DNA from: an uncultured Ectothiorhodospiraceae bacterium
GTDB lineage: Bacteria; Pseudomonadota; Gammaproteobacteria; UBA9214
NCBI GenBank assembly: GCA_964564245.1
Contig: CAZMAK010000001.1
Coordinates: 48,989-112,988, forward strand
Direction of reading: 5' to 3'
DNA: 64,000 bases
This document shows positions 177 through 35,133 of this stretch, piece after piece. The notes beneath the pieces were generated by a model. The model was not told the DNA's origin. It ran no database searches and worked only from the letters and a program-made list of their open reading frames with translations. The position numbers and the translations under genes are program-made. Within the stretch, counting starts at the first letter, position 1; each line of letters opens with the position of its first letter.

Positions 177-536
177 ACCCCGCTTTCGGTGGATGAATTC
201 CGTGCCGGACTGGCTGACCGCGGGGAGGACTACCAGCTGCTCGGGCGACACGGGGATGACGAGGTCCGCATCCGCTTTACCGGCACCTTCGAGGGTGCAG
301 ACATCCTCTGGGATGCCACGCTACGGGCACAGGGCAAACACCACCCGGGCAGGCAGTTCATCGACATTGCCGGAAGCGGGCATCCACTGCGGCGTATCGT
401 GGTCGGGCTGAACGTGGACACCCTCGACCGGGCGACCCTGCTCAAAACAATCATCATGGTCAGGAACTACAAACGGCTGCATACCGGGCGCCACGAGTTC
501 GGCAAGCCGGGTGATCGGGACGCCACGCTGTTATAA
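168..536 (+). CDS. hypothetical protein (122 aa)
   Basis: ORF track. The ATG overlaps the upstream stop. No recognisable motif. Confidence 0.4.
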   Translation: MADTPLSVDEFRAGLADRGEDYQLLGRHGDDEVRIRFTGTFEGADILWDATLRAQGKHHPGRQFIDIAGSGHPLRRIVVGLNVDTLDRATLLKTIIMVRNYKRLHTGRHEFGKPGDRDATLL

Positions 537-569
537 TCCCCCTCAGCCGGACCATCCCAGGAATGCAGC

Positions 570-809
570 ATGCCCTATTACATCTACATCGTGACCAGCA
601 ACTTGTCATCGGCATCGAAGTCGGTCACCCGGGTCAGCGAGTTTGACAGCTTCAAGCAGGCAAAATCCGAAGTCAGGCGACTGCGTACGGAACAGCCACT
701 GGCGGATAACCAGATCTACAAGGTCATGTTCGCGGATGATGAGGCCGAGGCGGAAAAGAAACTCAGGGAAGTGCGCGAGGAACCCATTGCCAGGGAATGG
801 GAAAAATAG
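570..809 (+). CDS. small hypothetical protein (79 aa) with a highly charged C-terminal half
   Basis: ORF track. 33-nt gap after the previous gene, same strand. KE-rich helix-like C-terminus. Confidence 0.4.
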   Translation: MPYYIYIVTSNLSSASKSVTRVSEFDSFKQAKSEVRRLRTEQPLADNQIYKVMFADDEAEAEKKLREVREEPIAREWEK

Positions 810-821
810 CATCCGGCGACC

Positions 822-1286
822 ATGGACGAGCAGCAGTACAAGACCACCTATCTGGCCGTCAATGAACGGCGCTGCGTATTTGAAAAGGCGATCAGTTCAC
901 GACGCAGCACGTGCAGCAAGTCGGTGCGTTTCCACATTGCGGACCGGGAAGGGATTTCCTGCAAATCCGCCGCGGGCAACGCGCTGTGCACGGAATTGCT
1001 GAGCCTGATGCGCAGCAATGCCCGGTTTGCCCTGCACCTGACGCATGCCGAGGGACCGTTGCCGCATGCCAAGGAGATCCGGGTTCAGACGGGTGGCATG
1101 CTGGGGCTGCAGTCGGTCCTGTATCCCGACCGGCAGGGGCTGACGGATGTCGATGACATCATCGGCCTGATCGATGCCGGCCTGCAACGCTACAGCAGCC
1201 TGGAACGGTTCCCCTTCGAGCAGATCGTCCAGAACATCGTGCACTTCGAGGGCCGCCGGAAACACGGCAGCCGCGACGAGGACTGA
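822..1286 (+). CDS. hypothetical protein (154 aa) with four Cys
   Basis: ORF track. 12-nt gap after the previous gene. Fourth member of a co-directional cluster of unknown genes. Confidence 0.4.
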   Translation: MDEQQYKTTYLAVNERRCVFEKAISSRRSTCSKSVRFHIADREGISCKSAAGNALCTELLSLMRSNARFALHLTHAEGPLPHAKEIRVQTGGMLGLQSVLYPDRQGLTDVDDIIGLIDAGLQRYSSLERFPFEQIVQNIVHFEGRRKHGSRDED

Positions 1287-1305
1287 TCGGGCCGCTCCGG
1301 CGCCG

Positions 1306-1980
1306 TCACTTGCCGCCCAGGAATATCGTGTCACTGACCACCGGACTGAGCGTTTCGACCACGGCATCGTTCAGCGTGGAATGCCGACGCACCTGGAAAT
1401 AGACGCGCTTGGTGCCGCTGCCGGGACTCAGCACGAATGGGGACGAGGCTGTGAAGTCCTGCCAGCTGGCATCACTGAAATCGGCGTGCTCGCTGGCACG
1501 GTACTGGGTCACCTTGCCGGACACGGAGGCATCTAGCGTCACCTTGCCTGACCCGGTCCGGGCCGCACCCCGGTTGATCACGAAATGCGTGACCTGCAAC
1601 CCGCCATGCCGCTGCGCGCTCGCCGTGCCTGACGTGCTGCAGACCGGTCCGCCACCACCACCGGTCAGTGAAAGCACCAGCATGCGACTGGTACTGGATG
1701 TGACCAGTCGTTCCTGTTCCGATTTGTAACCGTCCCTGGACGCGGTGACCAGTAACTCTGCACGCGGCAGGGATTCAAACACGACGTACCCGTTGGCATC
1801 CGTGACCTTGCCCCCGAACTGGTCAATCCGCGCCTGTGTCCCCAGGCAGACCGAGACCCCGGCCATGGGCTTGCTTGCACCCCGCTCAAACACACGCACC
1901 CGCAGATCCGCTGCCTGGACTGCCTGCAGCGCAGCGAAGTACAGCAGTACCGCCGACATCACACACCCTAGCCGTTTCAT
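1306..1980 (-). CDS. secreted protein with a carboxypeptidase-regulatory-like (transthyretin-like) beta-sandwich domain
   Basis: Signal peptide MKRLGCVMSAVLLYFAALQAVQA. Segment DLRVRVFERG...GVSVCLG...TDANGYVVFESL is typical of CarbopepD_reg-like domains. Start chosen at MKRL inside the track ORF. Confidence 0.5.
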   Translation of the reverse strand: MKRLGCVMSAVLLYFAALQAVQAADLRVRVFERGASKPMAGVSVCLGTQARIDQFGGKVTDANGYVVFESLPRAELLVTASRDGYKSEQERLVTSSTSRMLVLSLTGGGGGPVCSTSGTASAQRHGGLQVTHFVINRGAARTGSGKVTLDASVSGKVTQYRASEHADFSDASWQDFTASSPFVLSPGSGTKRVYFQVRRHSTLNDAVVETLSPVVSDTIFLGGK

Positions 1981-2110
1981 AGACACACCCCGCCGTGATA
2001 GGTCACACATTCACCGGTCATTACCGGGAACCGGTTCATTAAACATCCATCGGCATCAATAACAGAATATTGACAGAATTACCCGGACTGTCCGCACATT
2101 CCCCCGGCAT

Positions 2111-2668
2111 TCAGTCCCCCGTGCCCACCGGCGGCCGCGCTGCCAGTTCCAGCAGGACCTTGCGCAGGTCCGCTTCCAGGACCGGGAAACTCAACGCGTG
2201 GTGGACCGGGAGCCGGTCACGCAACTTGTTGAACGGAGAACTGAATTCTTCCTCGTAGAATACGATCACCCGGGTGCCGGGTAAACGTTGCACCACCGCC
2301 AGCAGGGACTCCAGGCTACTGGTCCGGTCGCGGAAATCGGACTGAAAGTTGTATTCCGCCACGATTACGTCGGGACAGCGCCGTCTGATCCCGGCGATGG
2401 CCTTGCGCATGCGCGTCTCGACGATCACCTCATAGCCGAGGCTTTCGTAGACCGGCCGGAAATTCGGATATCCACCCAGTTCGATGATGGAAAGCAGGAG
2501 TTTCTGTCCCGGTTGATCGCCCACGCTGCCGTCTCGAATCAGTGCGCGGCGTGCCGCCGGCAGGACGAATCCGTCGCCGGCCATGCCCTGGCGAACCGTG
2601 CAGATGCACCTGCCCGGACCCGGCCAGGCGCTCCGCCGTCCACTGCCTGCCGGAAATGGATCGGACAC
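2111..2668 (-). CDS. CheY-like pseudo-receiver domain protein (non-canonical)
   Basis: Alternating beta/alpha pattern: LLLSIIE, YEVIVE, DVIVAEYNF, RVIVFYEE. The phospho-acceptor Asp position holds Glu. GTG start per track; alternative ATG (MAGDGF) near 2584. Confidence 0.3.
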   Translation of the reverse strand: MSDPFPAGSGRRSAWPGPGRCICTVRQGMAGDGFVLPAARRALIRDGSVGDQPGQKLLLSIIELGGYPNFRPVYESLGYEVIVETRMRKAIAGIRRRCPDVIVAEYNFQSDFRDRTSSLESLLAVVQRLPGTRVIVFYEEEFSSPFNKLRDRLPVHHALSFPVLEADLRKVLLELAARPPVGTGD

Positions 2669-2679
2669 ATCCCGTCAAG

Positions 2680-2862
2680 ACACTGACGATATATATCTAT
2701 CCGATTGTATTTATTTAAAAATATTTTCATCTCCATATTTTTTAATATTTTATTAATTTAGATATTGCTTATTTAAGCGTTTGCTTATATATTTATTACT
2801 GTCCTTGCTGACAACACAAATTCCAACCAACTCATACACAAACTGACTGACAGGAGAACGAC
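2680..2862 (+). promoter_or_regulatory. AT-rich promoter island upstream of the Gly/Tyr-repeat protein gene
   Basis: About 180 bp of AT-rich sequence (tatatatctat...atttatttaaaaatatttt...) in an otherwise GC-rich window. RBS CAGGAG 7 nt before the ATG at 2863. Exact -35/-10 not assignable. Confidence 0.4.
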
Positions 2863-3204
2863 ATGAAGACTATCGCAACAGTAATTACGGCCGCCACTCT
2901 GGCAATCGCCTCTACCGCCGCTTCCGCCTGGGGCTGGGGTCCTTACGGCAACAACGGTTACAACAACAACGGCTGGGGCGACGGCTGGGGCGACGGCGAC
3001 GTCGACGGCGGCTTTAACATGAACTTCAGCGGGCACGGTAGCGGTCGTGGCTACGGTCGTGGCTACGGTCGTGGCTACAACAGCTACTACGATGGTTATG
3101 CCCCCTACGGCTATGCCCCCTACGGCTACGCCCCTTACGGCTATGCCCCGGCTCCCGCTCCGGTCGCCCCGGCTGCCCCGGCTACCGACACGACGACCAG
3201 GTAA
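2863..3204 (+). CDS. secreted Gly/Tyr-rich tandem-repeat protein, sulfur-globule-envelope-protein-like
   Basis: Signal peptide [22 protein letters not shown]. Mature part is low-complexity: (GYGR)x3, (YAPYG)x4, GWGDG repeats, Pro/Ala tail. Has RBS, AT-rich promoter and intrinsic terminator. Size and composition match Sgp proteins of purple sulfur bacteria. Functional call is an inference. Confidence 0.55.
3043..3078 (+). repeat. 3 x 12-nt tandem repeat (ggtcgtggctac) encoding (GRGY)3
   Basis: Read directly in the sequence, in frame with the sgp-like ORF. Confidence 0.85.
3097..3150 (+). repeat. 3.5 x 15-nt tandem repeat (tatgccccctacggc) encoding (YAPYG)n
   Basis: Read directly in the sequence, with minor third-position variation. 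Confidence 0.85.
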
Positions 3205-3232
3205 CACGGTCTGTCAACCCGGTAAGGCCGGA

Positions 3233-3263
3233 CGGGGGGACCAGCAGGTCCCCCCGTGTTTTT
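3233..3263 (+). terminator. rho-independent terminator of the sgp-like gene
   Basis: 10-bp GC stem cggggggacc/ggtcccccc(g) with a 4-nt loop, followed by gtTTTTTat. Lies 29 nt after the TAA at 3202-3204. Confidence 0.65.
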
Positions 3264-3289
3264 ATCTGCGGGAAGAACCGGTACGGACC

Positions 3290-3622
3290 CTACTCGGGTG
3301 GCATGTCGGTCAGGTTGGTCTGACAAAGCACCCCGCGCATGGTGCCGATCAGGTCAAGCAGCTTGTCGTTGCTGACACTGTAGTAGATCCGGTTGGCGTC
3401 ACGGCGTGAACGAACGATGTTCTTGTTGCGCAACTGGTCCAGGTGCTGGGAGACATTGCTTTGTGAGGTACCGATCTTCTCGACGATCTCACCCACGGAC
3501 ATCTCCTGGTTACCCAGGGTGCAGAGGATCTTCCAGCGCAGTGGATGTCCCATCGCCTTGAGGGCTTCAGCAGTGAGTGTGATATCCTCTTCCGGCAGGT
3601 TTTCTTCGATGTCCGCCATCAA
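3290..3622 (-). CDS. ArsR/SmtB-family HTH transcriptional regulator (two-Cys, SqrR/BigR-like arrangement)
   Basis: HTH segment MSVGEIVEKIGTSQSNVSQHLDQLRNKNIV is typical of ArsR. Cys in alpha2 (KILCTL) and near the C-terminus (GVLCQT). RBS AGGAG 6 nt upstream of the ATG. Confidence 0.8.
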   Translation of the reverse strand: MMADIEENLPEEDITLTAEALKAMGHPLRWKILCTLGNQEMSVGEIVEKIGTSQSNVSQHLDQLRNKNIVRSRRDANRIYYSVSNDKLLDLIGTMRGVLCQTNLTDMPPE

Positions 3623-4547: not shown

Positions 4548-6898
4548 CAGATTTCCCCGCTGCTGTTGCCGGTGCCGAGATAGCGGTCCAGCAGTGATTT
4601 CAGTTCTGTTGTGTCAAGCGGCTTGATGACGCAGTCGTTGGCGCCGGATTCCCTGCACATGCGCAGATCCCTTTCGTCTCCCACGGCGGTCAGTGCGATG
4701 ATCGGCAGATTCTGCAGCTGCGGCTGCCCGCGGATACGCCGGATGGTTTCGTAGCCATCCATGCCGGGCATCATTATATCCATAAACACCAGGCTGAATT
4801 CACCGTCGGTGGACAGTGTTTCCAGCGCCTCCGGGCCATCGCCGGCGGCCATGACCTGCAGGTTCCAGCCCTCCAGCAACGGCGTCAGGGCCAGCAGGTT
4901 ACGCACATCATCGTCGACCAGCAATACCCGTGCCGCGCCGTAATCGGCCGCGGGAATCGCCTGTTCCGCCGGCTTGCCGGGACGGACCGCCGGGAGCGGC
5001 CCGGCCGGCATGTCATTCGTATCGGCGGGCATCTCGGCAGGCAGGTACAGGGTGAAACTCGATCCGGTACCGGGTGTGCTCTCTGCGCGGATGTCACCGC
5101 CGAGCAACCAGGCCAGTTCACGGCTGATCGTCAGCCCCAGCCCGGTGCCGCCAAAGCGCCGGCTGGTCGAGCCGTCCGCCTGCTTGAAGGCCTCGAACAC
5201 CAGGTCGAGCTTGTCCGGGGCGATGCCGATCCCGGTATCCGTGACCCGGATACACACCGGGTAACTGATGCCACCCGCCGATTCCTCGCCCAGCAGCTCG
5301 AAACGGATGCCGCCATGGCTGGTGAACTTGACCGCATTCGACAGAAAATTGATGAGGATCTGGCGGATTTTCTCGCCATCGCTGATGACCGTCTCCGGGG
5401 CCGCGGGATCCACCGTGAGTTGCAGGGTCAGCCGCTTTTCATCCAGTTGCGGCCGCATCAGGTCCTGCACATGATCCAGCAAGCTGCGCAACTGCACCGG
5501 CTCCCTGACCAGGGTCATCTGCCGGGCCTCCACGCGGGACAGGTCCAGGATATTGTCGATGAGCGCCTTCAGGTCGGTACCGGCGTCATGGATGACCCGC
5601 GCCTGGCGGACCTTGTCCTCCGGCAGATTTCCTTCCGCGAGCATCTTGGAAAGCAGCAGGATGGAATTCAGCGGGGTGCGTAACTCGTGACTGACGTTGG
5701 CCAGGAATTCCGACTTGTAGCGATTCGATTCCTCGAGCTCGGCGGCGTAGTCATGCAGGGCACGGGTGTTGGCTGCGTGGGTTGCGGCCAGCCGCGTCAG
5801 GTTCTGTCCCAGTTCCTGCAATTCCCGCGGCTGGGACCAGGCGAACACCACGCCCTCGTCCCGCTCCAGCACCCGGGCGATCCGGTCGGTCAGTTCCTGT
5901 CCCAGACGCTCGATCCTGACCGCGATCAGCCGGGCCACCACGAACACCACCACCAGCAGGCCGACCACGATCAGCACGACACGCAGTTCCACCGCACGCT
6001 GCAGGGTGGCCAGTGGCGACGCGTCCACGCTGCGCCCGACCCAGAGCGTGCCGTAGTCCTGCGTATAGAACAGGGGCACCCATAACACCTGCTGGTTGCC
6101 GTATTCCCACAGGCCCAGTTCCCCCTTGCTGAACAGCTGCTGCAGACCCTGGAAGTCATCGAATGCGGAACTGCGCCGGGTCTCACCGTTCGCCGAGGGC
6201 AGGTACTGGCCGTCTCCGAGCACCCAGTAATTGCCCCGGTAGGCACTGGCCAGCCCGCCCAGGTCGAGATACACGATGACCGTGCCGCGCGGCTCGGGCA
6301 TCTCGCCCGATTCCGTGGGCATGGCCGGTATCATGACCGGGCTGATCAGGCTCATCTGCATGAACCGGTTTGGCGCGGTCACGCTGGCACCGCGGTCAAA
6401 CATGATCGGCCCGTTCATGACGGCGCCCGGACGCAGGGTCTTGCTGGCCTCGAGCAGTTCCGGGTTGATGGCCGCGTGCTTTTTCTTCCGGACCTCCATG
6501 CGCCCCGTGCTCTTGTTGCGATCCAGCCAGAACTCCGGGCTCCCGTCGGTCCTGAGAAACAGGATCTGCGTTACGTCCAGCTGGTCACTCAACACCTGGT
6601 TCACCCAGTTCACGTACGCTTTCCGGGAAGCATCGAGTTCCTGCTGATTCTGTTTCGACGTGGTGGTGCGCAACAACCCGGGCTCAGGCATCTTGGCAAG
6701 CAGTCTTGCCGTCTCGTGACGCCGCGCAAGGTGCTGGTCCAGGTCGCTGAACTCGGCGCGCAGGTTCTGCAGGTGTGCCTTGTGATACAGCAATTCGATC
6801 TTGTCAAAGATCATCGGTACATTGATCACGAATGAAACCAGCAGCGGTACCATGCTGAACAGGATCAGGTACAGGGAAATCCGGGTACGCAGCTTCAT
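4547..6898 (-). CDS. hybrid sensor histidine kinase (periplasmic sensor, TM, HisKA, HATPase, C-terminal receiver)
   Basis: H-box SHELRTPLNS. HATPase G-boxes DTGIGI and GGTGLGL. C-terminal VLLVDDD...MDIMMPGMDG receiver. Confidence 0.85.
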   Translation of the reverse strand: MKLRTRISLYLILFSMVPLLVSFVINVPMIFDKIELLYHKAHLQNLRAEFSDLDQHLARRHETARLLAKMPEPGLLRTTTSKQNQQELDASRKAYVNWVNQVLSDQLDVTQILFLRTDGSPEFWLDRNKSTGRMEVRKKKHAAINPELLEASKTLRPGAVMNGPIMFDRGASVTAPNRFMQMSLISPVMIPAMPTESGEMPEPRGTVIVYLDLGGLASAYRGNYWVLGDGQYLPSANGETRRSSAFDDFQGLQQLFSKGELGLWEYGNQQVLWVPLFYTQDYGTLWVGRSVDASPLATLQRAVELRVVLIVVGLLVVVFVVARLIAVRIERLGQELTDRIARVLERDEGVVFAWSQPRELQELGQNLTRLAATHAANTRALHDYAAELEESNRYKSEFLANVSHELRTPLNSILLLSKMLAEGNLPEDKVRQARVIHDAGTDLKALIDNILDLSRVEARQMTLVREPVQLRSLLDHVQDLMRPQLDEKRLTLQLTVDPAAPETVISDGEKIRQILINFLSNAVKFTSHGGIRFELLGEESAGGISYPVCIRVTDTGIGIAPDKLDLVFEAFKQADGSTSRRFGGTGLGLTISRELAWLLGGDIRAESTPGTGSSFTLYLPAEMPADTNDMPAGPLPAVRPGKPAEQAIPAADYGAARVLLVDDDVRNLLALTPLLEGWNLQVMAAGDGPEALETLSTDGEFSLVFMDIMMPGMDGYETIRRIRGQPQLQNLPIIALTAVGDERDLRMCRESGANDCVIKPLDTTELKSLLDRYLGTGNSSGEI

Positions 6899-6998
6899 CC
6901 GTCACCTTCGGGACAGCAATTGCTCATATGACCGCCTGGACCGGCGGACAACACTGTAACACGGGCGGCACGGGGTTCCGCCACTGCCAGGCCGCCCG

Positions 6999-7751
6999 CT
7001 AGTCCAGGTAGCGTGCCTGCCACTCCAGGAACTTGCCATGGGCATAGGCGGCATAGGACTCCGGGTCGGAAAACCGTGCGGGGTCGATGGGATCGTAGAT
7101 ATAGAAGTTCACCCGGTTATTGCGGGTGGTGCTCATATGCCAGATCTTGTGCAGCAGGGTCTGGGGATCGCGCCATTCAAAATCGTCCTGGGACTCGTAG
7201 TGGAGGAATACCGGCAGGATCGGAATGCCGCTACGCAGGGAAATGTCGAACGCCCCGTAACGGAATGACTCGAAGATGCGCCGGCCCTTGCAGCCGCCCT
7301 CCGGATACAGTGCGATGTTCCTGCCGTTGCGCAGTTCACGATCGATTTCCTCCGCCGCGGCATTGCGCGATTCCTTCGACTCACGCTGCACGTAGAGCGA
7401 CCCGGAGGCGGTGCTGATGCGACCGACGATCCACCAGTCCCTGACCTCGATCTTGGCCAGCGAATGCACCGGAAACACCGCCGGTATCCCGATATCCTCG
7501 AACGCCGAGGGATGGTTCGCGATCAGGATGTACTGCTTCGGCAGGCCCTTGCCGGTGTATTTCTGGTGGACCCGCAGATCGACCCCCAGTGCTCGCACGA
7601 AACTGCGCGCCCAGAAGCGGAACAGCGGGAAGTAGCAGGTACCGACCAGCGCCCGCGGCAGCCATGACAGCAGGTACATGAACAGGGTGAACACGGCGAG
7701 CTCCGTCCAGCAGAGGATTCGCCAGGCCAGTCTGGATACGAAACGGATCAC
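6999..7751 (-). CDS. lysophospholipid (1-acyl-glycerol-3-phosphate-type) acyltransferase
   Basis: NHPSAFED (HX4-5D-like) and YPEGG motifs. N-terminal TM segment. Directly downstream of the secretin gene on the same strand. Confidence 0.7.
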   Translation of the reverse strand: MIRFVSRLAWRILCWTELAVFTLFMYLLSWLPRALVGTCYFPLFRFWARSFVRALGVDLRVHQKYTGKGLPKQYILIANHPSAFEDIGIPAVFPVHSLAKIEVRDWWIVGRISTASGSLYVQRESKESRNAAAEEIDRELRNGRNIALYPEGGCKGRRIFESFRYGAFDISLRSGIPILPVFLHYESQDDFEWRDPQTLLHKIWHMSTTRNNRVNFYIYDPIDPARFSDPESYAAYAHGKFLEWQARYLD

Positions 7752-7900
7752 CGCCCCTGCCTGCTCCTGTCGTTACCCGACGCCTGCATCTTAGCAGTCA
7801 CGTACCACACCTTGCCACAGGCGGCACGGGGCCGGCGCCCGGCATGCCGGGCCACGTGCCGGTACCGTACTGTCCCGCACGAAGGTGTTCCAGGCACCGG

Positions 7901-9307
7901 CTAGTACAGTACCCCGCTGTCCGCATCTTTCCCCGGGGCCGCCGTCCTGCTCCGTGTATCGCCCAGCAGACTCTTCAGCGAGTCCTCGATGTAACCGTGA
8001 TTGTTCAGCTCATGGTCGATTTCCCGGGGCCGCTTCTCGAGCTGCTCGGCCGCCGCGGCGACCTTCGGTGCATTTCCGCCGTCCAGCGGGACCTTGTCAT
8101 TATCGATCAGGTAGGGTGTCACCAGCACGATCAGCTCCGAGTTGTCGCTCTTGTGCAGGTCGTTCGAAAACAGCCTGCCGAGCACCGGAATATCGCCAAG
8201 CACCGGCACGCCTTCGCGGTTGCTGTTGTCATTGCGGGTGATCAGGCCGCCGATGAACACCGTCTGCCCGCTTTCAACCAGCATGGAAGTGGTAACCTCC
8301 GCCGTCGTCTGGTTGAGGACGTCCCCGCCGCTGACCTCGGGGTGTATGTTCAGGAAAATCCGCCCCTCCCCGTCCACGGACGGCTTGACCTTCATGATGA
8401 CACCCACTTCCTGGAACTGGACCGAGGTGGTGGTGACGTTGTCGATGGTGGTGGTGACGTTATAACCGAGTCGTTTGCCGATGATGGTTTCCGCCTCCTG
8501 GTCTTCCAGTGCCAGCAGCTTCGGCGTGGACAGGGTGCGGGTGCGGCCGCGCGTACGCAGGCTGTCCAGGAAGGCCTGTACGTTGGGGGTGACATAGTTG
8601 AAGTACAGACCGGGTGAACCCGCGTTCCCCAGACCCTGGGTACCGATCGTGGCGTCACCGGAGCGAAACACCCGGGTCCAGTCCAGGCCCCAGGATTCCT
8701 GGTCGGTCAGCGATACCTCCAGTATCTTCGCCTCGATCAGGATCTGGCGCGGCTGGCGGTCCACTGCGCGGAGCATCCGTTCCACGCGGCCGAGGAAGTA
8801 CGGTGTGTCCTCGACGATCAGCAACCGCCGCTCCGGCAGCGTCGTGATCTGTCCGTAACTCGACAGGTGTGACTTGAGGATCCCGGCCACCACCTCGGGG
8901 TCGGAATACTGCACCTTGTAGGTGCGCACCTCGGTCGGTCCGCCCGGATCGGACTTGCCGGCCTGGTCGCGTTCCACGATGAAGTAACTGCCATTGCGGC
9001 GTTCCACACCGTACCCGGCCGAGGAGGCGATCGAACGGATGGCGGCATCGACCTCCACGCCGTACAGGTTGACGGAAACCTTGCCCTTGACGTTTTCGGA
9101 AAGCAGGATGTTCACGCGCGCGGTACGCGACAGCATCTCCATGACCTCCGCGATGCCCACATTGCGCAGGGTCAGCGTGATCTTGCCGTCATGGTAGATA
9201 TCCTCCGGCGCAGCGCCGTGTGCCGGCAGGGCCAGCAACAGCCACACCACCGGCAGCAACAGCGCCGGCGCGAGCCGGGATCTACCATGTTCCGCTTGTC
9301 TTTGCAT
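7901..9307 (-). CDS. type IV pilus/MSHA-type secretin (GspD/PilQ/MshL family)
   Basis: Signal peptide. Secretin C-domain motifs VPVLGDIPVLGRLF and LIVLVTPYL. Start chosen at MQRQAEHG, with GGAGAGG just upstream. The track ORF extends to 9385. Confidence 0.85.
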   Translation of the reverse strand: MQRQAEHGRSRLAPALLLPVVWLLLALPAHGAAPEDIYHDGKITLTLRNVGIAEVMEMLSRTARVNILLSENVKGKVSVNLYGVEVDAAIRSIASSAGYGVERRNGSYFIVERDQAGKSDPGGPTEVRTYKVQYSDPEVVAGILKSHLSSYGQITTLPERRLLIVEDTPYFLGRVERMLRAVDRQPRQILIEAKILEVSLTDQESWGLDWTRVFRSGDATIGTQGLGNAGSPGLYFNYVTPNVQAFLDSLRTRGRTRTLSTPKLLALEDQEAETIIGKRLGYNVTTTIDNVTTTSVQFQEVGVIMKVKPSVDGEGRIFLNIHPEVSGGDVLNQTTAEVTTSMLVESGQTVFIGGLITRNDNSNREGVPVLGDIPVLGRLFSNDLHKSDNSELIVLVTPYLIDNDKVPLDGGNAPKVAAAAEQLEKRPREIDHELNNHGYIEDSLKSLLGDTRSRTAAPGKDADSGVLY

Positions 9308-9701
9308 CCTCTCCGACCCCGGCCAGCGGCCTGACCCTGATTTCGCGTTGTACCCCGTTGTTATCGAGTACCACCCTGTCTTCATTAACGGCCATCAGCC
9401 GGTAACCATTGATTTCCTCTCCGATACCGACGATCTTCCCGCCGATATTCGCCAGTGAGTGCGGCCCGGCCAGCACAACCCCGCGCAGTTCCATGGAATC
9501 GTTACCGCCACCGGACTTGACACCGCCCCCGGCAGCGGCGGTTTGCGGTGGCACAAACGGGTTGATGTGCAGTTTCGTGTCGGGTTCCGACGCAAACCCG
9601 GCAAACGGCGGCAGCCACAGCGCCAGCAGCAACCCCAACGTGCGCCCGGCGGCCTGCCGGAACCGGTCTCCACGGGGCTGTTTCCCGCTGCGCTCAGTCA
9701 T
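9282..9701 (-). CDS. PilP/MshK-like periplasmic pilus assembly protein
   Basis: Signal peptide LGLLLALWLPPFAGFA. C-terminal beta-rich region GVVLAGPHSLANIGGKIVGIGEEINGYRLMAVNEDRVVL. Position between the PilO-like gene and the secretin. Start ATG at 9701 with GGGAGG RBS. Confidence 0.45.
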   Translation of the reverse strand: MTERSGKQPRGDRFRQAAGRTLGLLLALWLPPFAGFASEPDTKLHINPFVPPQTAAAGGGVKSGGGNDSMELRGVVLAGPHSLANIGGKIVGIGEEINGYRLMAVNEDRVVLDNNGVQREIRVRPLAGVGEDAKTSGTW

Positions 9702-10257
9702 CCTGCGCCTCCCGGTAGGAAACGATCGTGAAGGTGGCGACCACCCGCCGTGCCGTGTCGGCCGGCGGCCCCGCGGCAAGTTTGAACTGCTGGACCACCA
9801 CGTAGCCCAGTTCTTCACGCAAGTCCTGCAACCACTGGTACAGATCGAAGTAATCACCCGAAACCCGCACGTTGAACGTCACTTCCTCGAACACCTGCAC
9901 CTTGTCGCCCAGGCCGGGCGTCACGCTCAGCAGCTCGACATGATTGCGCCAGGAAATCTCCTGTAGCCGGCCGATGACGAAGGACTCCATCTGGTTCTTC
10001 GGCAGGTCGACCATATCCCCGTGCAACTGCCGGTTCAGCGTATCGACGCGGTCCTGCAAGCGGCTCATCTCGCCCTGCAGGGAATCGCCCTTGGCGGCCA
10101 CGCCTTCCAGCAGCCTGAGCGTGGCCAGCGATTCGCGGTAGGCCCTGGCCTGCGGCCACACGACGTAGCTCACCAGCGCGATAACCAGCGTCAGTGCCAG
10201 CGCGGACATCAGCAGCACGACGGTACGGGGCGGGACCCTTTGCAGGATGGCTTCCAT
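9694..10257 (-). CDS. PilO/MshJ-like inner-membrane pilus assembly protein
   Basis: Single N-terminal TM, coiled-coil, C-terminal beta domain. Gene order M-N-O-P-secretin. Confidence 0.55.
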   Translation of the reverse strand: MEAILQRVPPRTVVLLMSALALTLVIALVSYVVWPQARAYRESLATLRLLEGVAAKGDSLQGEMSRLQDRVDTLNRQLHGDMVDLPKNQMESFVIGRLQEISWRNHVELLSVTPGLGDKVQVFEEVTFNVRVSGDYFDLYQWLQDLREELGYVVVQQFKLAAGPPADTARRVVATFTIVSYREAQDD

Positions 10258-10907
10258 CAGTCTTTCGTCTCGTGCGTATTGACGGTCACGGCGAGATTGA
10301 AATCCACAAACTGGGTCCTGTCGACCAGCGTGGTATTGATGATCCGCACATCCTGGATCTCCGGCTGCCGGTACATGCGCCTGACGAATTCCGACAGCGC
10401 GGAGTAGTCTTTCGCCTGGCCATGGATCTGCATCCGCGTCTCGATCTTCCAGGCCTCGTTGCTCTGCTTGCCATCGGTGGCCGGAATGACGATGAAATAG
10501 CCGTTGCTGGCCGTCTCCGGCCTGTGCTCGACCACGCTCCCGGCCCGGTTGAAATCCCAGGACAGGAACCAGACATCGCCTTCCACCATGGCCCGGTCGA
10601 CCGCCTCGAACATGGCGGAGGCCACCGCGCCTCCGCGCAGCCCGCGCAGCAGCACCAGCCGGCTTTCCAGTTCGGCGCGTTTCCGGTCCAGCTGCGTGAA
10701 CCGCTCGCGCTGTTGCGCCGACACCGCCTGGCGCGCCTGCAGGCCGGCGATCAACCGTCCGGTCCTGATCGCCTGGTAATGCAGCACGCCCAGTGCCAGC
10801 AGCAGGACGACCACCGCCAGTGCGACCGCCACGCCAATATTGAGCGCCTTGCCCTGCAGCCAGATACGACTGCGATAGTCGGCGGGTATCAGGTCGATTT
10901 CAGCCAT
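10257..10907 (-). CDS. PilN-like inner-membrane pilus assembly protein
   Basis: N-terminal IDLIP motif (like the INLLP of PilN), then a TM and a coiled-coil. 8-nt overlap with the PilM-like gene. Confidence 0.6.
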   Translation of the reverse strand: MAEIDLIPADYRSRIWLQGKALNIGVAVALAVVVLLLALGVLHYQAIRTGRLIAGLQARQAVSAQQRERFTQLDRKRAELESRLVLLRGLRGGAVASAMFEAVDRAMVEGDVWFLSWDFNRAGSVVEHRPETASNGYFIVIPATDGKQSNEAWKIETRMQIHGQAKDYSALSEFVRRMYRQPEIQDVRIINTTLVDRTQFVDFNLAVTVNTHETKD

Positions 10908-12036
10908 TTTCGATCAGCCCGTTCATGGCCAGACCGGTGGCAATGGCGATCTCGGGGGAAGGCATGGCAACCGTCACCGGCTGCCTGCCGGCCGTCCGGC
11001 AAAACACCTGCAGCGGATTCGGAATGGTCTGGACCTCGAGCCTGATCAGCGAATTCAGCAGCGCGTCCACGCCGCGCCAGCGCGCCAGGCTGCCCAGCAG
11101 GTAGATACGGCCGATCGGTTCACCGCGTGTCTGTGAGGCGGCGTAGATCAGGGTGCGATTGATCTCCTCGGCGAGCTTGAGAAAATCCGGCTTGAGGATT
11201 TCCTGCAGTGTCACGGAAGTCTCGCGGTCGATCGTGCCGTCTTCACCGGCCCCGCCCTTTACCTGCGGGTCGAGGCTGTTGCCGGCAACCAGCCGCCGCA
11301 CCGGCTCGGTCTCCATGTCCAGCGCTTTGGCCACATGATCCAGCAAGCGGTTCTCGCCGAACCGGACCTCCTGGTCGAACAGCAGGCGCGCACCGGAAAT
11401 CACCGTCATGAAGCTCGACTCACGGCCGAAATTGATCGCCAGCACGTTCTGGTGCTCGCCGCGTTCCCCCATTGCACTGACCAGGCGGCGAATGGCGGAC
11501 GGCCCGATTTCCAGGTGTTGCGTCTCGAGTCCGCTCTTGCGCAGCAGCTCGAGATAGCGGATGACGCGTTCACGCGGGGCGACTGCGACGATCGCCAGGC
11601 GCTCCTCCATACCCTGTTCCGGACGCACCGGCAGATAATCGATCACGTAGTCACTCAGTTCGCCATCGAGCCGCTCCTCCAGAAGCTTCAGGATCGAGAC
11701 GTCGTCCGAGCCGCCCTCGGTAACCGTGTAGGACAGCGGCATGATTTTCACGTCGGAAGACGGCAGTGTCGTGACGATGGCCCGTCCGCGGAACGCATCC
11801 TGCCGCAGTGCCTCGCGCACCAGCGACCGGAACCGTTTCGGCTCGGCCAGCAGATCGTCCAGCGTCCCGGTATAGGGCAGCGAGGCGCTGGCGTGCAGGG
11901 AGATCTCGCCGCTGTGGTCCACGGCAAGCTGCACCAGGTGCAGGGCATGCAGTGCGCACTCCACGCCGATGAACCCGGTACGCCGCGCATTGGCGCCCGG
12001 GCGAACACGGTGCAGGACTTCTGCCAGCGCAGCCAT
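10900..12036 (-). CDS. PilM/MshI-like actin-fold cytoplasmic pilus assembly protein
   Basis: About 380 aa, the size and first position of pilM in pilMNOPQ-type operons. No TM. Confidence 0.6.
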   Translation of the reverse strand: MAALAEVLHRVRPGANARRTGFIGVECALHALHLVQLAVDHSGEISLHASASLPYTGTLDDLLAEPKRFRSLVREALRQDAFRGRAIVTTLPSSDVKIMPLSYTVTEGGSDDVSILKLLEERLDGELSDYVIDYLPVRPEQGMEERLAIVAVAPRERVIRYLELLRKSGLETQHLEIGPSAIRRLVSAMGERGEHQNVLAINFGRESSFMTVISGARLLFDQEVRFGENRLLDHVAKALDMETEPVRRLVAGNSLDPQVKGGAGEDGTIDRETSVTLQEILKPDFLKLAEEINRTLIYAASQTRGEPIGRIYLLGSLARWRGVDALLNSLIRLEVQTIPNPLQVFCRTAGRQPVTVAMPSPEIAIATGLAMNGLIENG

Positions 12037-12184
12037 TGCGGTATCTCTCCCCTTACCCCCGCGATTTCGCGTAGGTTACTGTCTTGAAAAAGGAATCCAG
12101 TACACCGTGATCGGCCGGGCAGGTGCGATCTTGAGGCAGTGTTGCGGGGGCATAAAGGGGGTTGCCCCGGGAAACGGCGACCGG

Positions 12185-13372
12185 TCAGGCCCGGCCCGAG
12201 CCCTGTGCGCGCGGCGGGTCAGCCAGCACCCGGCTGATGATATTGGCGGTCTGGTGGTGCCCGTCCTTGCGGGCCTTGGCGGTGTACAGGGCCTCATCGG
12301 CCTCGTGGTAGATATGTTCCTGCGAGTACTCGATGCCTGCCGGTACACTGGCCAGCCCCACGCTCAGCCAGATGGTCATGCCATTCTGCGGATTCGCTGC
12401 GCGCAGGGCGTCCTGGATCTGTTTCAGACAGGCGATGATCAGCTGCTCCGGCTGCTCATTGATAAACAGCAGCGCGAACTCGTCACCCCCCATGCGGATC
12501 AGGTAACCGTCATCCGCCAGCGCCCGGGTAAAGTGCAGGCTGATACTGCGCAGCACCTCGTCACCGAAATCATGGCCGCAGCAGTCATTGACGGGTTTGA
12601 AGTTATCCACGTCCAGATAGGCAAAATGGAAGGTCCTGTGCTCCGCGTGCCACGCCGCGGTTTTCTCCTCGAAGGTGTTTTTCAGGAACCGCCGGTTCCA
12701 GGCGCCGGTGAGCGGGTCCTTGTTGGACAGGTGCAACATCTTGCGATTCGCCTGCTCCAGCTCGTAACGGGTCTGCACTTCGGACTTGCGGATGGTCATG
12801 TTGCGCGTGACCAGCAGCAGGCTGATCATGCCGGCGCCGACCATGATGAACTGCAACGACCAGAGCGTGGCCATATCGAACCGTTCATAGGACGCCAGGG
12901 TGGACACGGTGAAGGTCAGGTAGATCAGGCCGGTCACCAGCAGCGCCTCGCGCAGCCCCCACGGCACCAGCGGGGCGACCATGAACAGCAGCGCCACACT
13001 GCCCAGCGTCACCTGGTTGAAGTCGCCGGTCTTGTGCGCCAGCAGCACGAAGGCCGTGCCACTGATCATCAGCAGGCTGGTCCCGAGCATGTACAGGGAG
13101 CTGGTATCGCGTGCGACACGTGCCGACACCATGATGTGCGTGGACAGCAGGGCAAGCAGGCCGCTGGTATAGACGGTGAAGTGCGAATACCCGAGGGCAT
13201 AGAACAGCAACGCGCTGGCACTGTAGATGCACAGCAGCACCACGCCCAGCATGACCAGGCCATGGCGGGTTTCCTCCAGTGTCACGCTACGAGCGTACAG
13301 CGCCACGTCATCCGAGTCGTAACTCGATGAAGACCATGACTTTTTCAGCATTTTTGACAGGGCGTTATACAC
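12185..13372 (-). CDS. membrane-anchored diguanylate cyclase (multi-TM N-domain plus GGDEF)
   Basis: RMGGDEFALL GGDEF motif with upstream NKDPLTGAWNRR. Six predicted TM helices N-terminal. Confidence 0.85.
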   Translation of the reverse strand: MYNALSKMLKKSWSSSSYDSDDVALYARSVTLEETRHGLVMLGVVLLCIYSASALLFYALGYSHFTVYTSGLLALLSTHIMVSARVARDTSSLYMLGTSLLMISGTAFVLLAHKTGDFNQVTLGSVALLFMVAPLVPWGLREALLVTGLIYLTFTVSTLASYERFDMATLWSLQFIMVGAGMISLLLVTRNMTIRKSEVQTRYELEQANRKMLHLSNKDPLTGAWNRRFLKNTFEEKTAAWHAEHRTFHFAYLDVDNFKPVNDCCGHDFGDEVLRSISLHFTRALADDGYLIRMGGDEFALLFINEQPEQLIIACLKQIQDALRAANPQNGMTIWLSVGLASVPAGIEYSQEHIYHEADEALYTAKARKDGHHQTANIISRVLADPPRAQGSGRA

Positions 13373-13524
13373 ACCACCGTTATCGGCAGTACGCCGTTAA
13401 ACCATAGCGGGAGAAGCGTGACGCCGAATCCACCTGATACGCAGACAAAACAGATACATGGCCGCCCAAGAGCCGGGCCTTCAGGATCGTTATCCGGAAC
13501 CGCAGGGGAGCGTTTCACGGACCT

Positions 13525-14427
13525 TCAGACCCCGATCGCGAAGCGCGAACCCGGATGCATGCCCTTGGAGCCGGGAAAGATGAGGTACATGACCCCATCG
13601 AGCTGGCATTCGACCGCTTCCCGGATGGCCGCGCACCGCGCGGCTGTCAGGCCGGTGGCCAGCCAGGCAAACTGGGGCACCCGTGACACGAAGGCGTTGT
13701 ACTCGTCCTCATCGGCCTGGCCGACATCGCTTAACAGCCCGGCAAGATGCACAATCGAGGCCTCCAGGGAATAGTCAGCCGATTGCCCGGGGGTATTGTG
13801 CAACTTTACCGGTTCCCACAGGCCTTTCGGCAGTCCCCACTGCTGCAGCAGGTCCCCGCCCAGCCGGGCATAATCAAAGCCGATCACCGCACCTTCCACC
13901 TCGTGCAGCGGGATACCTTCCGTCCGGGCACGCAGCAGGGCCGCCCGGGATTCGTCCGGAATCGACTGGTACATGACCAGGTGCCCGATATCGCGCAGTA
14001 GACCGGCGACGAACAGCCGCTCGCTATCCAGCATGTTGCAACTGGCCGCCAGCAGGCGTGCAGCCGCGGCGCAATATACGCTGCGTGTCCAGAAGGCATG
14101 CATATCCATCACCTCGATGGAAATGCCGGCAAAGGTCTGCGCCACCGAGGTGGCCAGTACCAGGTCGTGCACCTGCTGCGAACCGAGCATGCCGACAGCG
14201 CGCGAAATGGTTTCAACCTTCACGGAAAGGCCGAAATAGGGACTGTTGACCTGGCGCAGCAGGCGTGTGGCGATGGCCGGATCCGTACTGATGACTTCCT
14301 CGATGTCGGCGACAGCATAGTCGGGATCATCCAGCACCGCCTTCAGGCGTAGATAAACGGCCGGCAGCGTCAGCAACTGTGCCTTTGTAGTGACTTTTTC
14401 CCAGAGGCTATTGGTCGGCTGATCCAT
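13525..14427 (-). CDS. HDOD-domain signalling protein
   Basis: HDOD hallmark segments LPAVYLRLKAVLDDPDYAVADIEEVISTDPAIATRLLRQVNSPYFGL and LLRDIGHLVM. Confidence 0.8.
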   Translation of the reverse strand: MDQPTNSLWEKVTTKAQLLTLPAVYLRLKAVLDDPDYAVADIEEVISTDPAIATRLLRQVNSPYFGLSVKVETISRAVGMLGSQQVHDLVLATSVAQTFAGISIEVMDMHAFWTRSVYCAAAARLLAASCNMLDSERLFVAGLLRDIGHLVMYQSIPDESRAALLRARTEGIPLHEVEGAVIGFDYARLGGDLLQQWGLPKGLWEPVKLHNTPGQSADYSLEASIVHLAGLLSDVGQADEDEYNAFVSRVPQFAWLATGLTAARCAAIREAVECQLDGVMYLIFPGSKGMHPGSRFAIGV

Positions 14428-14488
14428 CAGTCGCCCTCCTTTCGTCTCTTATCGGCCACACAAGCGCAGTCCTGACCAGCTTGTTACC

Positions 14489-15419
14489 GGGTCGGACCTG
14501 TTTATCAGACTGATCCTCAAGCAATAAGTGTTCATATTTGGCTAAGGTATGGACCCTAAGCGTCGTTTCCAGGCTAAAAACGCAGTTTCAAGGAGGACAT
14601 GGATGCCTCGTGCACATCGCTATTTCCTGCCAGGCCATATCTGGCACATCACGCATCGCTGCCACAAGCGGCAGTTCCTGCTCAAGTTTGCGAAGGACCG
14701 CAGGGCCTGGGTGTACTGGCTCTATCAGGCACGCAAACGCTTTAACCTGTGCGTACTGAACTATGTTGTGACATCAAACCATATCCATTTGCTGGTTAAG
14801 GACACGGGGCGCGGAGAGATCTCGCGCAGTATGCAGTTGATTGCCGGGCGTGTGGCGCAACAGTTCAACCGACGCAAGGCACGCAAAGGCGCCTACTGGG
14901 AGGATCGCTATCATGCAACCGCCGTGCAGTCGGACGGACATCTGGCAAGGTGCATGGTCTACATCGACCTGAACATGGTCCGGGCCGGGGTGGTGGCACA
15001 TCCAGCGGACTGGGTGCATGCGGGTTACAACGAAATCCAGTCGTTGCCGAAGCGCTACCGCTGCGTCGATGTGGCAGCACTTTCCGCATTACTGGATTTT
15101 ACCGATGCGGATAGCTTGCGCGACGGACTGCGCACGCGAGTGGAACTGGCGCTTGCGAAGGGTAATCTGGAGCGCGACCCAGCGTGGACCATGAGTATCG
15201 CCGTGGGACAGCGCGACTACCTGGACGCGATCGGGCTCGAACTGAAGCTCAGTCATCCGGGGCGGAGGATTGAGGGAGACGCAGATCTATTATGCTTGCG
15301 GGAGGAACCGAGCAGTTATTCGAGCTAAAAAGTGCCAGAAAAGTATGGTCCAAGCTGAGAAATCAGTCGCTCAACCGCATTATGTGATTACTTATCAGGA
15401 TATTGGGAAGGTCCGACCC
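14489..15419 (+). mobile_element. REPtron-like unit: RAYT gene bracketed by inverted REP-like repeats
   Basis: Perfect 11-bp inverted repeat GGGTCGGACCT (14489-14499) / AGGTCCGACCC (15409-15419) flanks the transposase gene. The same core CAGGTCCGAC recurs in the 21-bp repeats at 23726-23747, 23875-23895 and 36807-36827. Confidence 0.5.
14603..15328 (+). CDS. REP-associated tyrosine transposase (RAYT; IS200/IS605-like Y1 HUH transposase)
   Basis: HUH motif NHIHLLV and catalytic-Tyr region GAYWEDRYH. AAGGAGG RBS 6 nt before ATG 14603. The track ORF starts further upstream at 14549. Confidence 0.8.
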   Translation: MPRAHRYFLPGHIWHITHRCHKRQFLLKFAKDRRAWVYWLYQARKRFNLCVLNYVVTSNHIHLLVKDTGRGEISRSMQLIAGRVAQQFNRRKARKGAYWEDRYHATAVQSDGHLARCMVYIDLNMVRAGVVAHPADWVHAGYNEIQSLPKRYRCVDVAALSALLDFTDADSLRDGLRTRVELALAKGNLERDPAWTMSIAVGQRDYLDAIGLELKLSHPGRRIEGDADLLCLREEPSSYSS

Positions 15420-15476
15420 CGTAATGCGCTCCGGGCTTTCTGCAGCAGGATGCGGCCAGCCCTTCCGGCGTTGCGC

Positions 15477-18400: not shown

Positions 18401-18983
18401 CGTCCCAGGACGCGGTCACGCGGTGCACTGTCACCGGCAAGGTGTGTTTGAACCGGGTGACATACCAGTGCGCCACGGCGGACACGATCGTGGCACTGGC
18501 CGGGATGCCGGCATTCTCGATGTCGAAGCGGTAGTAGGGCCGGTCGTAGTTGCCGCCGAGCAGGTTGCTTTCCAGGCGCAGCGTGCCGTCGCTGCCGTGG
18601 TTGGCGTTGCCGTTGTTCTTGTCGATCCAGGCATCGTCGCTGACCGGCACACTGACGTTCGAGATCGTACTGCCCACCTTGTTGACAGTGATGGTGGTCG
18701 AATAGTGATGGGCGCCGAACGGCACGCTGGACAGACCGGTATAGGGACCGCAACCGGCTGTATCGATCTGCTGCAGGGTATGTTGCAGGCCGGCCCTGGC
18801 GACGTACTCCGCCTGCGTGTGCCCGGCCACGGTGCCGGTGGCATTGAGTTCGACTGCAGAGCCATGATTGATCATGAAGGCGACCACGGCAACCAGTGCG
18901 ATCAGCAGCACCACCGGCAGCAGCACGAAACCACGCCGGTCGTTTGCACAGGCCACACGCCGTGTCGATCTGACTCGACTCAC
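15477..18983 (-). CDS. giant minor-pilin/adhesin fusion: GspK/PilX-like N-terminus, two carbohydrate-binding-like domains, YWTD beta-propeller, Gly14 linker, C-terminal lectin-like domain
   Basis: N-terminal RRGFVLLPVVLLIALVAVVAF is a pseudopilin-type helix lacking Glu5, as in GspK. Two copies of a beta-sandwich module ending W(D/V)E(A/G)T/S..W.N. Six YWTD/YWT(N/H) repeats (YWTDDVANKIQRSD, LYWTNNYQIRRANLDGSN, MYWTHDNGSSRVMSANLDGS and others), as in LDL-receptor class B propellers. Gly14 tract. Stop overlaps the upstream pseudopilin start. Confidence 0.7.
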   Translation of the reverse strand: MSRVRSTRRVACANDRRGFVLLPVVLLIALVAVVAFMINHGSAVELNATGTVAGHTQAEYVARAGLQHTLQQIDTAGCGPYTGLSSVPFGAHHYSTTITVNKVGSTISNVSVPVSDDAWIDKNNGNANHGSDGTLRLESNLLGGNYDRPYYRFDIENAGIPASATIVSAVAHWYVTRFKHTLPVTVHRVTASWDEATVTWNSIGTSFDASTVASIPAGTPQDQYADVNLTALVQGWVSGAQPNYGVLIVSSTLLGTDTTEFASKEDSDASHRPYLEVRYTDGNLSNRAAVTATGTLDSGASYTIVRNDIPLYQPVSSATLQPGAELQDAFVWAGAHKNTNFGASSILNIKNDRNVLLRFALEVLPPGARITDAHLGLYLEGGSGVSNGRLDLHRVTHAWVEGSFDNQVPPPGAGVTYQSYDGLTAWNNPGGDYDAAVIDSVTLPTMAPGWYEWDVTAQVQDWLDGAPNFGFLLREGGGNAGDIDFTSSDSPAAAQHPQLTLTFACECGVVCQLPQGSGRLLLVVGNAAAPAAADITRKTLFESWGYVVTLIDDGVDQSTMNAAMGANDAVYVSNTVADATLGNRLKRAPIAVITEPAEQYDNLGVADPGSYTVTDSIGIADNTQFITALFPLGVIPLGNLAMEGATVTANPAPGLQALGRLNGATGLSAIEAGAQMFGGGNAVARIISVPVGRAGKFNWDYLNNNGRLLVQRAIQWGMDGVPAVPPKKVYWTDDVANKIQRSDEDGSDVEDVLTGLDRPTGLDIDTVNGKLYWTNNYQIRRANLDGSNSEVVYNDAYVTFDIKLDVAGGKMYWTHDNGSSRVMSANLDGSGATLVNNTLNRPSYLSLDKSAGKMYLTEFGSGRVSSMKVNGSSVTTLTTGPTGAVGSALDLVNGKMYWTGGASNDWIRRANLDGSNMETIVTGLNAPQDIAYDADHDRIYWVDALNQRVQRSDPDGGNVETIVSSGLSRPRGIVLVDADQVPPTGGGGGGGGGGGGGGCSGTYRDDFNAHNYSGNDGTLSWTGDWQEVNEADGAQSGDEWVGADSTASATPGTNQLRVRDNDGGGEGVLREANLAGATTATLSLQYRRNQLDTSSDYVALQVSSNGSAGPWTELTRFQGWGTDYGYRSFSQDISAYISGTTAIRLLSSSTLGWADEVWFDNIQIQCTP
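15991..16034 (-). repeat. (GGN)14-15 trinucleotide tract encoding a poly-Gly linker
   Basis: Forward strand reads ccTCCGCCACCGCCGCCACCGCCACCGCCGCCACCGCCACC. Protein has TGGGGGGGGGGGGGGC. Confidence 0.8.
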
Positions 18984-20962: not shown

Positions 20963-20995
20963 CGGTACCGGTTCTCATGCATGCGAGGCTGCGGG

Positions 20996-23715: not shown

Positions 23716-23725
23716 GCGGGTGACT

Positions 23726-35087: not shown

Positions 35088-35133
35088 TCGTCCAATAGCA
35101 ATTAAGAAAAAAATATGCCCCTGGAGAAACCGG

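Follow-up and report, generated by a model that had tools for sequence, protein, structure and literature searches.

In the present analysis we examined a window of 64,000 nucleotides (nt), i.e., the whole stretch at positions 48,989 to 112,988 of contig CAZMAK010000001.1 (GenBank assembly GCA_964564245.1, an uncultured bacterium labelled Ectothiorhodospiraceae), with emphasis on a small gene near its 5' end, hereafter sgp, and the elements surrounding it. The gene encodes a Gly/Tyr-rich precursor of 113 amino acids (aa), and the region is very probably a monocistronic sulfur globule protein cassette of the SgpA/SgpB-type family (Pfam PF17228), whose product would coat periplasmic globules of elemental sulfur (S0). 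All coordinates are those of the window, and the features of the cassette, in which the repeats were located by Tandem Repeats Finder, are as follows:

2680-2862, plus strand: A/T-rich island with the promoter and the 5' leader of sgp, which also serves as upstream region of the divergent gene at 2111-2668 (minus strand)
2757-2793, plus strand: conserved promoter box, with TTTAG at 2757-2761, a -35 element TTGCTT at 2765-2770, a 17-nt spacer and a -10 element TATATT at 2788-2793
2801-2808, plus strand: conserved GTCCTYGC element just 3' of the -10, invariant in the six-genome upstream alignment
2852-2857, plus strand: Shine-Dalgarno sequence AGGAGA, 5 nt ahead of the ATG, read from the sequence
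2863-3204, plus strand: sgp coding sequence with an ATG start, for the 113-aa precursor of an SGP-family (PF17228) sulfur globule protein
2863-2928, plus strand: signal peptide coding region, 22 aa, with predicted cleavage after ASA and before W23
2969-2997, plus strand: 12-nt tandem repeat, 2.4 copies, GWGD units, 100% matches
3042-3078, plus strand: 12-nt tandem repeat, 3.1 copies, GRGY units, 100% matches
3097-3149, plus strand: 15-nt tandem repeat, 3.5 copies, YAPYG units, 92% matches
3166-3183, plus strand: 9-nt tandem repeat, 2 copies, APA tail
3232-3264, plus strand: intrinsic terminator, a stem-loop at 3232-3257 of 11 pairs (9 of them G-C) with a 4-nt loop, followed by GTTTTTA

From our searches of Pfam-A, the sgp protein was found to match the family 'Sulphur globule protein' (PF17228) with 69.5 bits (E = 4.5e-19, cut-off 26.7), its residues 25-107 covering profile positions 2-90 of 93, and the mature part alone scored 70.3 bits. 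Because the protein is compositionally extreme, a shuffle control was run, in which six shuffles and one reversal of the mature part (signal peptide kept) gave no PF17228 match even at E <= 10; the match reflects the order of the residues and not the Gly/Tyr composition alone. A first-pass annotation of this DNA, made from the letters alone, had proposed an envelope protein like SgpA/B/C and had named comparison with the profiles of sulfur globule proteins as a check, and the proposal is borne out by the score, by the nearly complete coverage of the profile, by the dependence on residue order and by the match of the relatives' profile to a Beggiatoa Sgp described below. No other Pfam family matches the protein (YbgS, E = 0.076, and TrAA12, E = 0.047, are both far below the cut-offs), and a spore-coat, cuticle or YbgS-like protein was rejected on these grounds. 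Among 5.8 billion proteins searched, 57 relatives were found, nearly all of them already carrying PF17228, while a full HMMER search with a profile built from 21 sequences, run on 1.84 billion cluster representatives, returned 414 at E <= 1e-3, of which 194 reached E <= 1e-10. The SGP family is small but well established. An alignment with 20 relatives showed motif blocks in a common order, which in the N-terminal part run from the ...ASAW end of the signal peptide through WG..NGWG to DGxGDGDxDGGF(S/N)MNFSG, and in the C-terminal part from an 11-residue block through a Y-rich linker and a 10-residue block to APVAAPVAP.

We then compared the gene with the sulfur globule proteins that are known from experiments, which are described as small, Gly/Tyr-rich and repetitive with regularly spaced prolines (PMC8877833, PMC10386293) and of which only a few have been localised (PMC10386293, PMC7356093). 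The Sgp of Beggiatoa leptomitoformis (ALG67575.1) was identified by mass spectrometry (MS), and a strain unable to form globules has the gene for it interrupted by a transposon (PMC7356093, the supplement of which supplied the sequence). Using hhalign, the family profile was matched to this protein with a probability of 99.1% (E = 8e-19, 71 columns), and in hmmsearch the hidden Markov model (HMM) of the alignment scored 53.7 bits against ALG67575.1 and 43.4 and 20.9 bits against two further Thiotrichales Sgps, while none of 90 shuffled Thiotrichales Sgps matched the family HMM. BLASTP without compositional correction gave 46% identity over 116 residues between the sgp protein and the Beggiatoa Sgp. 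The short form of sgp is co-linear over its whole length with this 15-kDa protein, and the blocks follow in the order that is seen in the Beggiatoa Sgp (also B. alba EIJ43877.1), beginning with a signal peptide that ends in A-W-W/G, GWG(N/D) and DG..GDFNMS, and continuing with GGRGYGR, Y-rich and (A)PYG repeats and a PA-rich tail. The Beggiatoa Sgp differs from the protein described here in being longer (152 aa) and in having a more expanded AP/YG repeat region. The likeness to SgpA and SgpB of Allochromatium vinosum (CV1 and CV2) lies in the small precursor with a Sec signal peptide, the PF17228 score well above threshold, the Gly/Tyr-rich mature protein of ~9-10 kDa with regularly spaced prolines, and the monocistronic gene with its own promoter and rho-independent terminator. 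Unlike A. vinosum, the host has as its closest genome relatives metagenome-assembled genomes (MAGs) labelled 'Ectothiorhodospiraceae' and Thiogranum, not Chromatiaceae.

The signal peptide was called by eye from its n-h-c layout (a basic N-terminus, a 15-residue hydrophobic core and an A-x-A motif read from the sequence), from the family alignment, in which the ASAW junction is nearly invariant, and from its alignment with the annotated transport peptide of the Beggiatoa Sgp. The mature product would comprise 91 aa (9.6 kDa, pI 4.7), with G at 25%, Y at 15%, A at 11%, P at 10% and N at 9%. Cleavage of the signal peptide and a location of the protein on sulfur globules are what these sequence features and the family membership would predict.

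Certain observations weigh against the identification of sgp as a globule envelope gene. Given the family alignment, AlphaFold2 produced no confident structure for the precursor (mean pLDDT, the predicted local distance difference test, 51), with a helix predicted over residues 3-22 only, a lack of fold that is consistent with a low-complexity structural protein. Default BLASTP gives no alignment between the sgp protein and ALG67575.1 because of its compositional correction, and the homology therefore rests on the profile methods and the shuffle controls. The likeness to SgpA/B/C of A. vinosum is known through the Pfam profile and published descriptions, not through direct alignment; a homologue search seeded with a Chromatiaceae 'CV1' fragment so as to reach SgpA/B returned only 14 metagenome fragments. 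Furthermore, no dsr, sox, sqr, fcc or apr genes were found by Pfam in ~50 open reading frames (ORFs) of the 64-kb window. This absence of sulfur-oxidation genes would also suit a protein that belongs to PF17228 by descent and serves in another periplasmic or envelope role, e.g., as a Gly/Tyr-rich matrix or adhesive protein, as would the fusion of some SGP domains to OmpA domains or long charged C-terminal extensions, which speaks for more than one context, and the small number of members with an experimental location. We nevertheless consider such a role improbable, as almost all named genomes carrying relatives are those of sulfur oxidisers, the short form is co-linear over its full length with the MS-verified Beggiatoa Sgp, and PF17228 is the sole Pfam family to match.

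The assignment of sgp to the globule envelope is accompanied by a regulatory architecture that is retained with the gene. The first-pass annotation had noted an A/T-rich island of about 180 bp, and the G+C content is indeed 0.28 over 2680-2862 (0.16 over 2690-2800) vs 0.63 for the window, making this the lowest-GC 183-nt stretch of the 64 kb; A/T-rich upstream islands were found for all short-form sgp orthologues. Apart from it, values below 0.40 occur only at 41929-42233, in the intergenic space from which a histidine kinase gene and a Sel1-repeat gene diverge, and at 31896-32078 (31.9-32.1 kb), where there is neither an sgp-like ORF nor any recognisable gene. The upstream alignment of six syntenic genomes has three invariant elements, namely TTGCTTATTT at 2765-2774, CTTATAT at ~2785-2791 and GTCCTYGC at 2801-2808, and the promoter region 2680-2862 contains TTGCTTATTTAAG. 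The GTCCTYGC element is likely the region in which transcription starts, judging by its position, and GTCMT recurs at other sgp loci. As an alternative reading, the promoter may have a 15-nt spacer with TATATA as the -10. A scan of the sgp upstream region for the strict sigma-70 consensus gave no promoter, since the -35 of the box fits the consensus at just 3 of 6 positions.

In the fetched loci, 573 kb in all, there are 27 copies of TTGCTTATTT, where by our estimate ~1 chance occurrence of a random 10-mer is expected, and for 25 of the 27 an sgp start codon follows at a distance of 88-98 nt. With a weight matrix derived from the box, matches were found 88-120 nt upstream of short sgp genes in further lineages (Ca. 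Thiodiazotropha, a Chromatiaceae MAG, ALJrbin.36 and others), and across lineages the box is ~35 nt long and reads TTGCTWATWTWAG-N5-6-CTWATAT. The spacer of the box is in part a palindrome (CTTA-TT-TAAG here, CTAATATTAG in locus L019) and shows unusually strong conservation, and the box as a whole resembles the published promoter of A. vinosum sgpD, TTGATA-N13-TTATATACT (PMC10386293). The weight-matrix scan also placed the same box ahead of two genes each in loci L020 and L024, which carry (at ~350-3600 and ~5900-10500, respectively) arrays of small secreted Asn/Trp-rich paralogues (MKTLLT...SADWDMPFFGDNNN...).

At the other end of the gene, the folded 3' region has an energy of -34.9 kcal/mol (z = -2.7), and a hairpin of the form ACGGGGG...CCCCCGTTTT stands 3' of sgp in all 10 of the 10 other loci examined, including the relocated copy in locus L027. 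The claim that the gene has a promoter and a terminator of its own thus stands, both elements being conserved beside sgp genes in many organisms, with a stem of 11 bp (9 G-C) in place of the 10 bp first described. As box and terminator are conserved together with sgp, the gene appears to behave as a self-contained promoter-gene-terminator cassette, in agreement with the report that sgp genes are separate transcription units with their own promoters and rho-independent terminators (PMC10386293).

It might be argued that an ORF in such DNA is a by-product of repetitive GC-rich sequence and no real gene. The low-complexity repeats of sgp do create a 140-aa ORF on the opposite strand (2785-3207), and the exact sgp product is absent from a cluster look-up in which the products of neighbouring genes were present, having been seen only on contigs of <10 kb; a public contig of 132,041 bp, on which sgp may have gone uncalled, encodes the window's ArsR, PAS response regulator, MshE-like ATPase and MsrA. 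Against this, the gene has a Shine-Dalgarno sequence, a product with a predicted signal peptide and an above-threshold Pfam score, and a family of 414 representatives, its promoter and terminator are conserved, and the identical 113-aa protein was called on seven short metagenome contigs with the same neighbours on all of them. An artefact of this kind is effectively refuted.

The mature protein is encoded by 273 nt, of which the four repeat arrays of sgp span ~137, the remainder being low-complexity sequence rich in Gly, Asn, Tyr and Trp. The earlier description of a protein built almost entirely of repeats is therefore overstated, literal repeats making up about half of the mature part, while its mention of literal 12-nt and 15-nt DNA repeats agrees with the exact 12-nt and near-exact (92%) 15-nt arrays. 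The 100% identity of the 12-nt units would indicate recent expansion within sgp, and the exact or near-exact DNA repeats behind GWGD x2, GRGY x3 and YAPYG x4 suggest that the expansion was lineage-specific. Among orthologues and close relatives of 103-128 aa, the differences are mainly insertions and deletions inside the repeat blocks, the G[RH]G[YH] runs having one to three units in orthologues and four in the long-form relative L043, and the PYG counts ranging from 2 to 5. Within the species no change of repeat number was found, as the same-species contigs found all code for one and the same 113-aa protein, with a single nucleotide difference in one of the contigs; the same contigs do show single-nucleotide polymorphisms in the promoter spacer. 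Proneness to repeat-number variation, which had been predicted from the DNA repeats, thus holds between related species and not among the contigs of this one.

The codon usage of sgp departs from that of the window: CGT encodes 3 of 4 Arg (17% background), GCT 5 of 18 Ala (4%) and GCG none of the 18 (34%), and AAC serves for 8 of 8 Asn, the sample of codons being small. In proteobacteria such a departure accompanies high expression, and a high level of expression would thus be predicted for sgp. SgpB reportedly ranks with the most abundant transcripts and proteins of a Ca. Thiodiazotropha symbiont (PMC11171427), and SgpA-C of A. vinosum are described as constitutively synthesised (PMC3368242).

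To place the gene among its relatives, one genome per GTDB species was scanned with the single sgp protein as query, which gave 25 loci with a best match of 79% identity, so that the species of the window itself is absent from these representative genomes. The named relatives are Sedimenticola, five Ca. Thiodiazotropha, Thiogranum, a Chromatiaceae MAG and Magnetovibrio, in addition to an 'Ectothiorhodospiraceae' MAG with two sgp paralogues and other gammaproteobacterial MAGs. Almost all named genomes are those of sulfur oxidisers, and sulfur-oxidising MAGs were the subject of the salt-marsh study that yielded ALJrbin.36 (PMC10686091). According to the literature, true Ectothiorhodospiraceae are without sulfur globule proteins and Thiogranum is a deep-branching lineage outside that family (PMC8877833).

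The family has more than one form among these relatives. Long forms, which reach 311 aa and some of which have internal repeats, consist of the SGP domain and, C-terminal to it, a further 80-200 aa, which are rich in Q/E/K/R/M, look helical and match no Pfam family (loci L009, L011, L013, L015, L023, L026, L029 and L043; proteins P0010, P0016, P0018 and P0061). SgpD of A. vinosum, a fluorescent fusion of which has been shown to co-localise with globules, is reportedly helical or coiled-coil, and by analogy the long forms may combine two envelope functions. In P0081, P0082, P0084 and P0091 the SGP domain is fused to an OmpA-like peptidoglycan-binding domain (PF00691), which hints that some globule proteins could be anchored to the cell wall. 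In five Ca. Thiodiazotropha loci (L014, L016, L021, L028 and L030, at ~9400-10650) a long-form sgp stands in tandem with a short one (114 aa, PF17228 82 bits), directly upstream of the pyruvate dehydrogenase E1/E2 genes, an arrangement conserved in all 5.

The cassette is flanked by two genes on the opposite strand:

2111-2668, minus strand: divergent neighbour of unknown function (157-185 aa), with no Pfam or PDB match, syntenic in related genomes
3290-3622, minus strand: ArsR/SmtB-family regulator gene, convergent with sgp, the annotated form of which starts at ATG 3619

Synteny was assessed by tblastn of the neighbour genes against the fetched loci. Five related MAGs keep a block that consists of a CarboxypepD_reg-like gene, the unknown gene of 157-185 aa, sgp, arsR, and the genes for the PAS response regulator, the hybrid histidine kinase and an acyltransferase, and a long-form sgp is found close to the arsR, response regulator and histidine kinase genes in the loci of Thiogranum and HyVt-519. 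In L027 (2110-2640, 8297-8519) the junction of arsR and the unknown gene has a 222-nt gap in place of sgp, and the complete cassette (box, gene and terminator) is found 5.5 kb away, on the far side of the acyltransferase-histidine kinase-response regulator-arsR block; in L031, sgp adjoins the acyltransferase gene as in L027.

The ArsR neighbour was matched by NCBIfam HTH_metalloreg with 90.5 bits and also by HTH_5, its second-best NCBIfam match being the BigR equivalog NF040642 with 77.3 bits, below the 155-bit cut-off. The closest solved structures are NolR, YgaV, HlyU, BigR and SqrR. As in BigR, SqrR, YgaV and HlyU, a winged-helix ArsR fold carries a Cys pair (alpha2 and the C-terminal helix) 66 residues apart: C34 and C100 align with the Cys pairs of BigR (3pqj), YgaV (3cuo) and HlyU (3jth), and both are invariant in nine ArsR orthologues, including one that is 49% identical. 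NolR, the best solved relative, is without the first Cys in the alignment. Unlike in BigR, no sqr, persulfide dioxygenase or rhodanese gene is adjacent, nor is TauE/YeeE among the ArsR neighbours, which are the PAS response regulator, the hybrid histidine kinase, the acyltransferase and sgp; and unlike BigR and SqrR, the gene ends a histidine kinase/PAS response regulator gene string. The two-Cys layout pointed out in the first-pass annotation is accordingly present, whereas the further step, that the regulator fits a sulfur globule gene, is circumstantial.

Conceivably, instead of being driven simply by a strong promoter of the housekeeping type, sgp could be switched by this two-Cys ArsR as a persulfide or redox sensor, possibly together with the adjacent histidine kinase and PAS response regulator. 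The aligned and invariant Cys pair would suit such a role, as would the recurrence of sgp-ArsR adjacency in three arrangements: convergent in the clade of the window, with long-form sgp in Thiogranum and HyVt-519, and co-directional in ALJrbin.36, in which 85 nt separate the ArsR gene from a second sgp that precedes it on the same strand. The spacer of the sgp box, partly palindromic as it is, is conserved beyond the need of sigma-70, which might point to a dedicated transcription factor for envelope synthesis, for which a persulfide-responsive ArsR of the NolR/HlyU/BigR-like type would be the candidate in the lineage of the window. The sequence at 2757-2772 also fits the loose NolR consensus (A/T)TTAG-N9-A(T/A) (PMC12445080), NolR being the closest solved relative. 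This motif is, however, of low information, with ~0.4 chance matches expected in the A/T-rich stretch by our estimate, and the stricter Lee motif is not present. In addition, sgp and arsR are convergent and have no promoter region in common, and arsR has a conserved promoter-like motif of its own without a similar box. The whole region is syntenic, so the adjacency may be simple inheritance, and the L027 block has no sgp here. The score against the BigR equivalog falls short of its cut-off, and the A. vinosum proteins are, as noted, reportedly constitutive. The box as an ArsR-specific operator is disfavoured, as it precedes sgp in Thiodiazotropha, the Chromatiaceae MAG and others without this ArsR neighbour. 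On balance, both the control of sgp by the ArsR neighbour and its part as the dedicated factor read from the spacer are considered unlikely.

The Pfam survey of the window ORFs further gave a type IV/MSHA-like pilus cluster, c-di-GMP and two-component signalling genes, a SulP transporter, a ClC channel, glycosyltransferases, LipB/LipA and MsrA. The pilus cluster (7901-25931) encodes a secretin, a PilM-like protein, an MshE-type ATPase with an N-terminal STAS-like domain, T2SS-F and prepilin-type proteins, as well as two CBM96 proteins, one of 253 aa (21847-22608) and one of 1168 aa that also has LDL-receptor class B repeats (15477-18983). An ORF for an IS200-like Y1 transposase (PF01797, E = 2e-10) lies at 14549-15328 between an HDOD-domain gene and the large CBM96 gene. 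The longest ORFs in 33953-36085 and 50923-53720 had no Pfam match, and Rfam and tRNA scans of the whole window gave no matches.

Taken together, we propose that sgp would be transcribed from the conserved sigma-70-like promoter (TTGCTT, 17 nt, TATATT) in an A/T-rich, UP-element-like island, with a leader of ~60-65 nt bearing a strong Shine-Dalgarno sequence, and that the transcript would be closed by the strong intrinsic terminator. The 113-aa precursor would be exported via the Sec pathway and cut after ASA, and the resulting 91-residue, 9.6-kDa protein, rich in Gly, Tyr, Pro, Asn and Trp and with no predicted stable fold, would form, together with paralogues encoded elsewhere, a thin envelope round the periplasmic S0 globules that arise from sulfide or thiosulfate oxidation. 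The gene is an uncharacterised addition to a known family in an already known monocistronic architecture, and the surprise is accordingly low: this is expected biology, which is useful for reading metagenomes and leaves the view of sulfur globules unchanged. The two-Cys ArsR is a candidate regulator of sgp that can be tested, and the promoter box, being found across lineages, could be used to look for sgp genes hidden under the label 'hypothetical' in the output of gene callers. In essence, sgp marks its uncultured sediment gammaproteobacterial host, a relative of Thiogranum and of the 'Ectothiorhodospiraceae'-labelled MAGs, as a probable storer of sulfur in the periplasm.

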